From IMG/VR virus record IMGVR_UViG_2718217859_000007: DNA of 45,044 bases. One strand, given 5' to 3'. The notes beneath the pieces are model-generated. The model was given only the letters and a program-made list of their open reading frames with translations, searched no databases and was not told the origin of the DNA. The position numbers were made by a program, and so were the translations under genes. Shown here in pieces: positions 39,679 to 40,041 of the stretch. The stretch comes from a virus (Duplodnaviria > Heunggongvirae > Uroviricota > Caudoviricetes). Numbering within the stretch: position 1 is the stretch's first letter; every line of letters begins with the position of its first letter.

Positions 39679-40041
39679 TTTATCCTCCATTGAAGTTACT
39701 GGTTGAGAATGGAGACCACACGTGACAGCGTGTTGTCGTGCGCCGGACACGGATAAGAATCCGGCACTGACAGTTTACTGAAAGGATATATCCCTGAAAA
39801 GTCAGGGCACAACACGAAAGCGCACAGCGAAGTCACTTCTCCCTCTGTTGCGTGCCACCGGCATCTTCGTCCGTGCGCTTTCGGTTGTGGCAATCCGCGA
39901 AATGGCGCGGCGGTAAGTATGGCAGGTGGTACTATTCTCCCCACCTGTGGAACACCGGGTTGTCAGGTTGACCATACGCTTAAGTGACAACCCCGCCATA
40001 ACTCATACTGCTATAGATATATGGGGTCTAACCGGAGGAAA

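Follow-up and report, generated by a model that had tools for sequence, protein, structure and literature searches.

What is the structured, noncoding stretch that lies between two small open reading frames (ORFs) in the early region of a lambdoid prophage, and what might it do there? The window analyzed here is the whole 45,044-nucleotide (nt) stretch of IMG/VR record IMGVR_UViG_2718217859_000007 (Caudoviricetes), which represents a Qin-like lambdoid prophage. An original prediction, made from its letters alone, had pointed to a candidate noncoding RNA in the gap between a minus-strand 70-amino-acid (aa) gene and a plus-strand 73-aa ORF. We find in this gap a conserved structured block of 268 nt on the plus strand (39737-40004), inside the early-left (dicB) operon. 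It is well supported as the untranslated "pre-DicF" leader, a cis-encoded structured RNA of a dicB-type operon that has been orphaned in this prophage. In other words, what looked like a "mystery noncoding RNA" in the window is the DicF leader, already known, which remained when a rare cassette took the place of DicF. As to function, we see roughly an even chance that the leader is a cis-acting ribonuclease III (RNase III) processing site coupled to a 5′-terminal junction domain on the released RNA.

The extent of the whole element, which comprises module A and module B, was taken from BLAST boundaries, alignment with K-12 and GC content. BLAST against 5426 complete Escherichia coli genomes matched the block in 4307 of them (about 80%), unannotated in every case, and most matches were bounded at window positions 39737 and 39996 (query 58-317). 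The block is modular, as matches begin at several 5′ positions and nearly all of them stop at about 39996. Its GC content is 55.2% vs. 39.5-47% in the adjoining segments, which bears out the claim of a GC-richer gap. All six predicted stems are present as well, with coordinates that were exact or off by 1-2 nt: GCCGGA (39742-47) with TCCGGC (39760-65), CCCTGA (39792-97) with TCAGGG (39802-07), GCGCAC (39820-25) with GTGCGC (39873-78), CCGCG (39895-99) with CGCGG (39906-10), CAGGTGG (39923-29) with CCACCTG (39941-47), and GGGTTGTCA (39957-65) with TGACAACCC (39985-93). Beyond this list, we found two longer-range helices, helix H (39808-39889) and a closing stem, P1. The region 39700-40045 folds at -128.5 kcal/mol on the plus strand (z = -3.5) and at -132.5 kcal/mol on the minus strand (z = -4.5), with none of 100 shuffles as good in either case. 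The ORFs that cover the block, already judged implausible from the letters, are not credible because homologues differ by 2-nt and 4-nt indels within it.

The identity of the block follows from its homology and its position. The match in K-12 MG1655 falls between ydfC and dicF (about 1649102-1649359; 82% identity over 260 nt), an interval that has been described as the "long untranslated region" of the dicBF operon (PMC5069750). Identity is about 82% across window positions 39737-39996, and model R1 scored 138 bits in the window (one copy) and 166 bits in K-12. The position also agrees: in a dicB-type early-left operon, the block lies between ydfABC-like ORFs and dicB and on the sense strand. 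A covariance-model search of Rfam and covariation across homologous prophages had been proposed as checks on the candidate. The former matched no family to the block, and the latter showed stems that are conserved and covarying. More specifically, Rfam searched at the gathering threshold over the whole window and permissively (E up to 10) over 39400-40700 returned no family in the element, the sole permissive match there being P18 at chance level (E = 5.7). Rfam STnc100 and DicF (RF02076 and RF00039) belong to the same noncoding stretch of dicB operons, but neither spans 39737-40004.

Module B (39883-40003, plus strand), when folded alone, forms a four-way junction in which the minimum free energy (MFE) structure equals the centroid, at -51.8 kcal/mol (z = -2.7). 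The closing stem P1 pairs GGUUGUGGC (39883-91) with GCCAUAACU (39995-40003), or GGTTGTGGC with GCCATAACT in DNA letters. P2 pairs CCGCG (39895-99) with CGCGG (39906-10) around the loop AAAUGG, P3 (39912-39956) is an irregular arm with a variable stem and a pyrimidine-rich loop, and P4 pairs GGGUUGUCA (39957-65) with UGACAACCC (39985-93) around a conserved 19-nt loop, GGUUGACCAUACGCUUAAG. To count covariation over 26 pairs, we used 55 distinct sequences and then 62 sequences aligned to model R1. Standard pairs made up 93-94% of the cells, both sides had changed in 8 of the 26 pairs, none of 500 shuffles reached the observed values, and slid partners paired in 33-60%. There were 102 G:U cells vs. 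18 A:C cells, and pairing was better on the plus strand (97.0%) than on the minus strand (91.5%); the operon-sense RNA is therefore the strand that folds. With stems that covary, G:U pairs that favor the plus strand and a K-12 homologue that is transcribed and processed, the candidate does stand as a structured, conserved noncoding RNA.

P3 was analyzed sequence by sequence, and at least 8 different stems were found, including CAGGUGG/CCACCUG, CGGGG/CCCCG, CUGGGGC/GCUCCAG, CGAGG/CCUCG, CCAGGG/CCCUG and CCCGGG/CCCGGG. Despite this complete change of stem, the apical loop (window 39930-39940) is pyrimidine-rich throughout (UCCUU, CUCC, CUCUU); the motif resembles an anti-Shine-Dalgarno sequence. 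The P2 loop, the P4 loop and the junction nucleotides are near-invariant from lambdoid phages to phage P1, and the window has lost none of the stems or conserved loops. For P4, RNAalifold on a MAFFT alignment paired the second GGUUG with CAACC; we rejected this pairing and prefer the 9-bp P4 because UUGCCA/UGGCAA in phage P1, UCGUCA/UGACAG in locus L051 and GGAUUG/CAAUCC in locus L137 all fit it. Loop kissing between P2 and P4 (AUGG with CCAU) was also rejected, as L058 and L144 carry an uncompensated U-to-C change in the P2 loop. The P1 stem is supported as real by a natural variant (L005 and about 80 genomes) which keeps it as the hairpin GUUGU-GAAUA-ACAAC and has no P2-P4.

Module A contributes two hairpins on the plus strand and leads into helix H. 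The first hairpin, GCCGGA/UCCGGC (39742-39765), has variants UUCGGC and UCCGGU that still pair through G:U, and in the second, CCCUGA-AAAG-UCAGGG (39792-39807), three pairs have changed on both sides (e.g., CUCUGA/UCAGAG). Helix H (39808-39889, plus strand) is a long, irregular hairpin of about 22 bp in the MFE structures and a predicted RNase III substrate. Its strands are CACAAC + CGAAAGCGCAC + GCGAAG and CUUCGU + GUGCGCUUUCG + GUUGUG (in DNA letters, CACAAC-CGAAAGCGCAC... and ...GTGCGCTTTCG-GTTGTG), with a variable apex. In the Qin-like set, 87% of cells are paired and each one-sided change gives G:U. In other lineages, both strands have been replaced together: GCGAAAGCGCA/UGCGCUUCCG in K-12, GAUGAGAGCA/UGCUCUCUUC in the F1055 type (L143), GAUGAGGGCA/UGCUCUCAGC in Stx2c phages (L004), and CGCAG/CUGCG in the upper helix of a Salmonella India copy (L144). 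In the F1055-type phages (L143:2885-3005; L148, L151, L153), the insert enclosed by helix H is a different one, about 110 nt long, with a T-arm-like GGTTCGATTCC hairpin; ARAGORN on the F1055-type loci and Rfam on L143 found nothing in this insert.

The 3′ strand of helix H ends with GUUGUG, and the same GUUGUG starts the P1 stem. Helix H and the P1 stem therefore exclude each other, and the junction can close only once helix H has been cut or melted. In both the window and K-12, the MFE structure of the uncleaved RNA uses helix H, and forcing P1 costs 3-4 kcal/mol. Helix H vs. the P1 stem was the only conserved alternative pairing seen. We found no sign of a riboswitch or attenuator, since no Rfam family matches and the terminator stems downstream vary without a matching change in module B.

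The K-12 locus shows how such a leader is processed. Two forms of DicF, of 53 nt and 190 nt, are seen on Northern blots and accumulate in stationary phase. RNase E makes the 5′ end of the 53-nt form and RNase III that of the 190-nt form, and no internal promoter was detected (PMC10448788). Going back 190 nt from the 3′ end of dicF leads to L002 position 2746, at CGTGCG|CTTCCGGTTGTGGC (in RNA, CGUGCG|CUUCCGGUUGUGGC), which aligns to window 39872-39891. The mapped 5′ end lies in the 3′ strand of helix H, 4-5 nt before the P1 stem. Because it falls at the boundary between helix H and P1, the 190-nt RNA is module B plus the spacer plus DicF. By homology, the putative RNase III cleavage in the window would fall at 39878/39879 on the plus strand (39878..39879), accurate to about 4 nt. 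The window RNA and the K-12 190-nt RNA (Faubladier et al. 1990; Ragunathan et al. 2023, PMC10448788) share homologous sequence, operon position, strand and the helix that carries the RNase III site, and the latter has this four-way junction as its 5′ 137 nt. Unlike K-12, the window lacks DicF and its terminator and has a cassette of the 73-aa ORF and a DUF1883 gene instead, and the P3 and helix H apex sequences differ. The DicF literature that we surveyed treats the upstream 137 nt of the 190-nt DicF only as precursor sequence and gives no description or function of a junction domain, nor of its occurrence outside DicF loci, although older papers may hold an earlier account of upstream conservation.

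Taken through its steps, the processing-site reading would run as follows. The operon transcript would fold with helix H formed, as the MFE calculations indicate, and RNase III, which makes the corresponding cut in K-12, would cleave helix H and so part the upstream ORFs from the downstream RNA. The freed 5′ end would refold into the compact four-way junction, with module B starting 4-5 nt past the cut. The junction may then act as a 5′-terminal domain that stabilizes and marks the downstream RNA and probably recruits a conserved partner; for K-12, enrichment with Hfq has been reported upstream of dicF. As part of this reading, and held with the same evenly balanced confidence, the block would be transcribed on the plus strand as part of the operon and from no promoter of its own. 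Intercistronic RNase III signals are familiar from phage early transcripts, such as the R sites of T7 and the N leader and sib of lambda. There, an irregular helix of about two turns lies in a polycistronic early transcript, and cutting separates the RNAs and alters their stability. What sets the arrangement here apart is that one strand of the cut helix also belongs to the closing stem of a conserved four-way junction next to it, for which those signals are not known to have any equivalent.

Several observations weigh against this reading. The homologues are all enterobacterial and 76-100% identical, the covariation, although real, comes from few independent events, and helix H in the Qin-like set varies only by one-sided changes. 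RNase III cleavage has been shown only in K-12, and the site proposed for the window was placed by homology. The near-invariant P2 and P4 loops and junction nucleotides exceed what a simple 5′ protective stem needs, which implies a specific partner. The L005-type variant without P2-P4 keeps helix H and the DicF-like terminator, so the processing site as such does not require module B. In phage P1, where about 45 nt separate module B from the promoter, neither helix H nor a P1 stem is obvious, so coupling to RNase III is not universal. The conserved loops, together with the absence of module B from the examined lambda-type left operons, point to a role for module B beyond the capping of a 5′ end.

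One such additional role would be in trans. Under this explanation, which we regard as rather improbable, module B is an Hfq-associated RNA domain that gives the long DicF a second function, with targets reached through the P3 or P4 loop. Hfq co-immunoprecipitation in K-12 enriched an interval upstream of dicF, with DicF itself just below threshold (PMC4152368), and the 190-nt form is stable in stationary phase (PMC10448788). The P3 loops retain UCCUU/CUCC-type motifs despite their different stems, the 19-nt P4 loop is near-invariant from lambdoid phages to P1, and the phage P1 version is essentially module B plus a terminator. Nevertheless, an anti-Shine-Dalgarno motif of 4-5 nt is weak evidence, the window has no terminator to define a discrete RNA, and no target was identified, no genome-wide complementarity search having been made.

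The distribution of module B leads to a second alternative, that of control over termination. Besides the E. coli prophages, module B is found in the ban operon leader of phages P1 and P7, where it overlaps an annotated "dicF-like region," in about 500 P1-like plasmids, in Salmonella phage F1055 and in a Salmonella India replicon, and in Stx2c and cdtI phages, about 290-355 nt after the cI gene and a strong PL-like promoter. Among plasmids and phages, BLAST returned only Enterobacteriaceae plus one Actinobacillus phage record, and a single-run scan of genome contigs returned 13 loci, mostly Escherichia or Shigella with a few metagenome bins labeled otherwise. In about 100 homologous loci, module B is followed by a spacer of 12-45 nt and then by a GC-rich hairpin with a U-tract. 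The hairpin belongs to at least seven very different sequence types, including DicF proper, a short GGCGGAAAUGGAUAUCCGCC, GGCGGUACCAG... in Stx2c phages and GCCCAUCUUCGGGUGGGCG in phage P1, while module B is constant; module B is better conserved than DicF itself. The hairpin-terminator RNAs (e.g., L124, L044, L020, L004, L079, L003) form a diverse DicF family, only some members of which Rfam DicF recognizes at the gathering score; the 52-nt DicF covariance model finds DicF in 9 of the homologous loci. Two further pairings were tried here and rejected. An antiterminator pairing of module B GGCGG with terminator CCGCC fails in L022, where only the terminator stem has changed, and masking of the DicF seed by module B finds no complementarity by eye, the DicF-like parts being variable and module B constant.

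The main rival to the processing-site reading builds on this arrangement. It holds that module B acts in cis on the transcribing RNA polymerase, in the manner of the put RNAs of phage HK022, or that it binds a factor or ligand, and thereby controls read-through of the intrinsic terminator just after it and of terminators further downstream, in temperate phages that have no N. We consider it unlikely, but it accounts for several features of the data. A strong but very variable hairpin with a U-tract lies 12-45 nt past a constant module B in about 100 loci, and genes past the terminator need to be expressed (dicB in Qin-like prophages, the tRNAs through ban in P1, and early-left genes in Stx2c and cdtI phages). 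The distance from a repressor-controlled early promoter to module B is 45-355 nt in P1, Stx2c and cdtI phages, and a macromolecule that is itself conserved would be a fitting partner for conserved loops on variable stems. The examined phages with module B all lack an annotated N gene, and the variant without P2-P4 is found in lambda-type left operons of prophages that keep helix H and the DicF-like terminator (L005:3000-3235, L156, L157). N is annotated in L005, the sequence of which was read directly; L156 and L157 were assigned by BLAST match to the L005 junction, and their operons are recognized by ral, kil, gam and bet. This correlation with N, however, involves few related lineages and is based on annotation.

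Other evidence goes against control of termination by module B. The main species in K-12 is a transcript that terminates at DicF, and read-through RNA is seen only upon RNase E inactivation (PMC10448788). The window has a single copy of module B, about 1.4 kb from the operon start, not one copy shortly past each early promoter as in HK022, and it has no credible plus-strand intrinsic terminator downstream; only in P1, Stx2c and cdtI phages is the element near the promoter. Module B shows neither conserved pairing nor covariation with the terminator: in L022, the terminator has GGUGG/CCACC and the GGCGG of module B is unchanged. Model R1 found no match in HK022 24-33 kb (24000-33000), where the put sites are unannotated and their presence is assumed. 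No sequence or structure match to putL or putR was found for module B, a 120-nt four-way junction. Put RNAs are like it by analogy only, as structured RNAs in the early operons of temperate phages without N that precede terminators needing read-through; they differ in being about 70 nt long with two stem-loops and in occurring as one copy per early operon beside the promoter, and K-12 shows substantial termination after module B. The ban leader of phage P1 (misc_feature 68791-68892, NC_005856) is like the window in that it conserves P2, P3, P4 and the junction nucleotides, has compensatory changes (e.g., from UUGUCA/UGACAA to UUGCCA/UGGCAA), is followed by a terminator hairpin and belongs to a repressor-controlled early operon. 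In contrast to the window, its module B is about 45 nt from the promoter and lacks module A, helix H and any convincing P1 stem, and the annotated feature spans only P4 and the terminator. A bolder form of the idea, which we hold to be doubtful, would place module B in a novel class of cis-regulatory phage RNAs. Its four-way junction would engage RNA polymerase during elongation, or a protein or ligand, set how far DicF-family terminators are passed and replace N/nut in temperate phages without N (Qin-like, Stx2c and cdtI-like, F1055-like and P1), and its folding would be gated by the RNase III cut of helix H.

The window departs from its homologues just downstream of the leader. No DicF (RF00039) was found in the window at the gathering score or in 39400-40700 at E up to 10, and the K-12 dicF sequence has no match in the window with up to 3 mismatches. 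Where nearly all homologues continue with a DicF-family seed and an intrinsic terminator, there is no terminator-like site. A cassette (40005-40519) stands in place of the spacer, DicF and terminator, and it carries the 73-aa ORF (40043-40264, plus strand; Shine-Dalgarno GGAGG at 40034-38) and a convergent DUF1883 gene (40205-40474, minus strand; Pfam 1e-24) that overlaps the 3′ end of the former; neither protein has a PADLOC match. Since DicF and its terminator have been replaced by this cassette, the leader is orphaned and now precedes the 73-aa ORF. The cassette is present in 7 of the 5426 complete E. coli genomes, and E24377A has an identical junction; among the loci compared downstream, only the window and the near-identical L001 break the terminator pattern by this cassette. 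The junction with the cassette lies 3′ of the P1 stem, of which 8-9 bp are kept and which is still fully paired, a further sign that this stem is real. The usual post-DicF sequence resumes at about 40520. An STnc100-like match (40506-40699, plus strand; 41.3 bits, below the Rfam gathering score of 47, E = 3e-7) runs into the start codon of dicB. In Qin-like loci, the DicF terminator is likewise followed by an STnc100-like leader and then dicB, so STnc100 appears to be the 5′ leader of dicB.

With its usual partner DicF gone, and with this arrangement in only 7 of 5426 genomes, the block in the window might be an inert relic, either a recombination linker between mosaic modules or a structure that passively blocks Rho loading on a long untranslated stretch. 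E24377A and the window have an identical 3′ part of the element with different P3 and module A subtypes, which indicates recombination within the element and would fit a linker. We nevertheless think a relic quite unlikely. Every stem and conserved loop is intact in the window, and the window and E24377A both keep P1 and P3 pairing by different sequences. In addition, there is a second, independent context without DicF, in a 473-kb replicon of Salmonella enterica serovar India (L144:2840-3145). It holds the most diverged full-length copy that we found, which is intact, has no DicF-like terminator and leads directly into AGGAGG and the ATG of a 148-aa hypothetical ORF.

The operon context also bears on what the original prediction had made of the locus. 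Both flanking genes exist, the minus-strand 70-aa ORF and the plus-strand 73-aa ORF, but the setting is a single plus-strand operon and not a gap between divergent genes. On the plus strand, the order is a RelE/ParE-like ORF, a terminator, a promoter-like site, a DUF1391 (YdfA-like) ORF, a 45-aa ORF, a 212-aa ORF and the element, followed by dicB (40683-40871), a DUF1482 ORF, a RecE-like 823-aa ORF, xis and int. This order is broken by two minus-strand genes, the 70-aa ORF (39469-39681) and the DUF1883 gene. The promoter-like site TTTACA-17-TATTGT (38328-38356, plus strand) follows a strong terminator (38278-38301), with gene order as in K-12 and H1, and it is probably the dicBp equivalent that transcribes the element, about 1.4 kb downstream. 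The RelE/ParE-like toxin ORF, in 37976-38356, is upstream of that terminator. An independent regulatory or antisense small RNA gene is not what we find: no promoter-like or terminator-like site was found in 39682-40042 on either strand, so that the block has neither its own promoter nor its own Rho-independent terminator, and it is antisense to neither flanking gene and lies inside a dicB-type operon. The 70-aa ORF, directly upstream, is an inserted gene outside the RNA element; it is absent from K-12 and has no Pfam or PADLOC match. At the same position, E24377A has a gene annotated as a GhoS type V antitoxin on the opposite strand (L140:2215-2499), and the site immediately 5′ of the element appears to be a slot into which different genes insert.

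These accessory genes (the 70-aa ORF, DUF1883 and the GhoS-like gene of E24377A) and the cloverleaf-like topology are what would favor the last alternative, raised in part at the outset, namely that the block is the RNA part of a defense, antidefense or toxin-antitoxin system, such as a type I or III antitoxin RNA, a retron noncoding RNA or a tRNA-like decoy. This is very improbable. PADLOC gave no match for four neighboring proteins, Pfam found only DUF1883 and DUF1391 among the neighbors, and no tandem repeats were found in the region. ARAGORN found no tRNA or tmRNA in 39600-40200, where Rfam tRNA was also without a match. No reverse transcriptase or nuclease gene lies near the element, and the flanking accessory genes vary or are missing in homologues whereas the RNA is constant. 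Elsewhere in the prophage, there is a match to the sok antitoxin RNA (Rfam, 115 bits; 31787-31962, minus strand), which implies a hok/sok-type locus, and there are two tRNA genes at 27173-27323 (minus strand).

The dicBF locus is among the oldest and best-studied prophage small RNA systems, controlling cell division, metabolism and phage resistance in E. coli. The 137 nt before DicF contain a discrete, covarying four-way junction, which also heads early operons of P1, Stx2c and cdtI phages. If this junction domain has an activity of its own, be it stabilization, Hfq loading or control of termination, it would add an extra regulatory layer to a toxic prophage operon, and it would also define an RNA family that is missing from Rfam.

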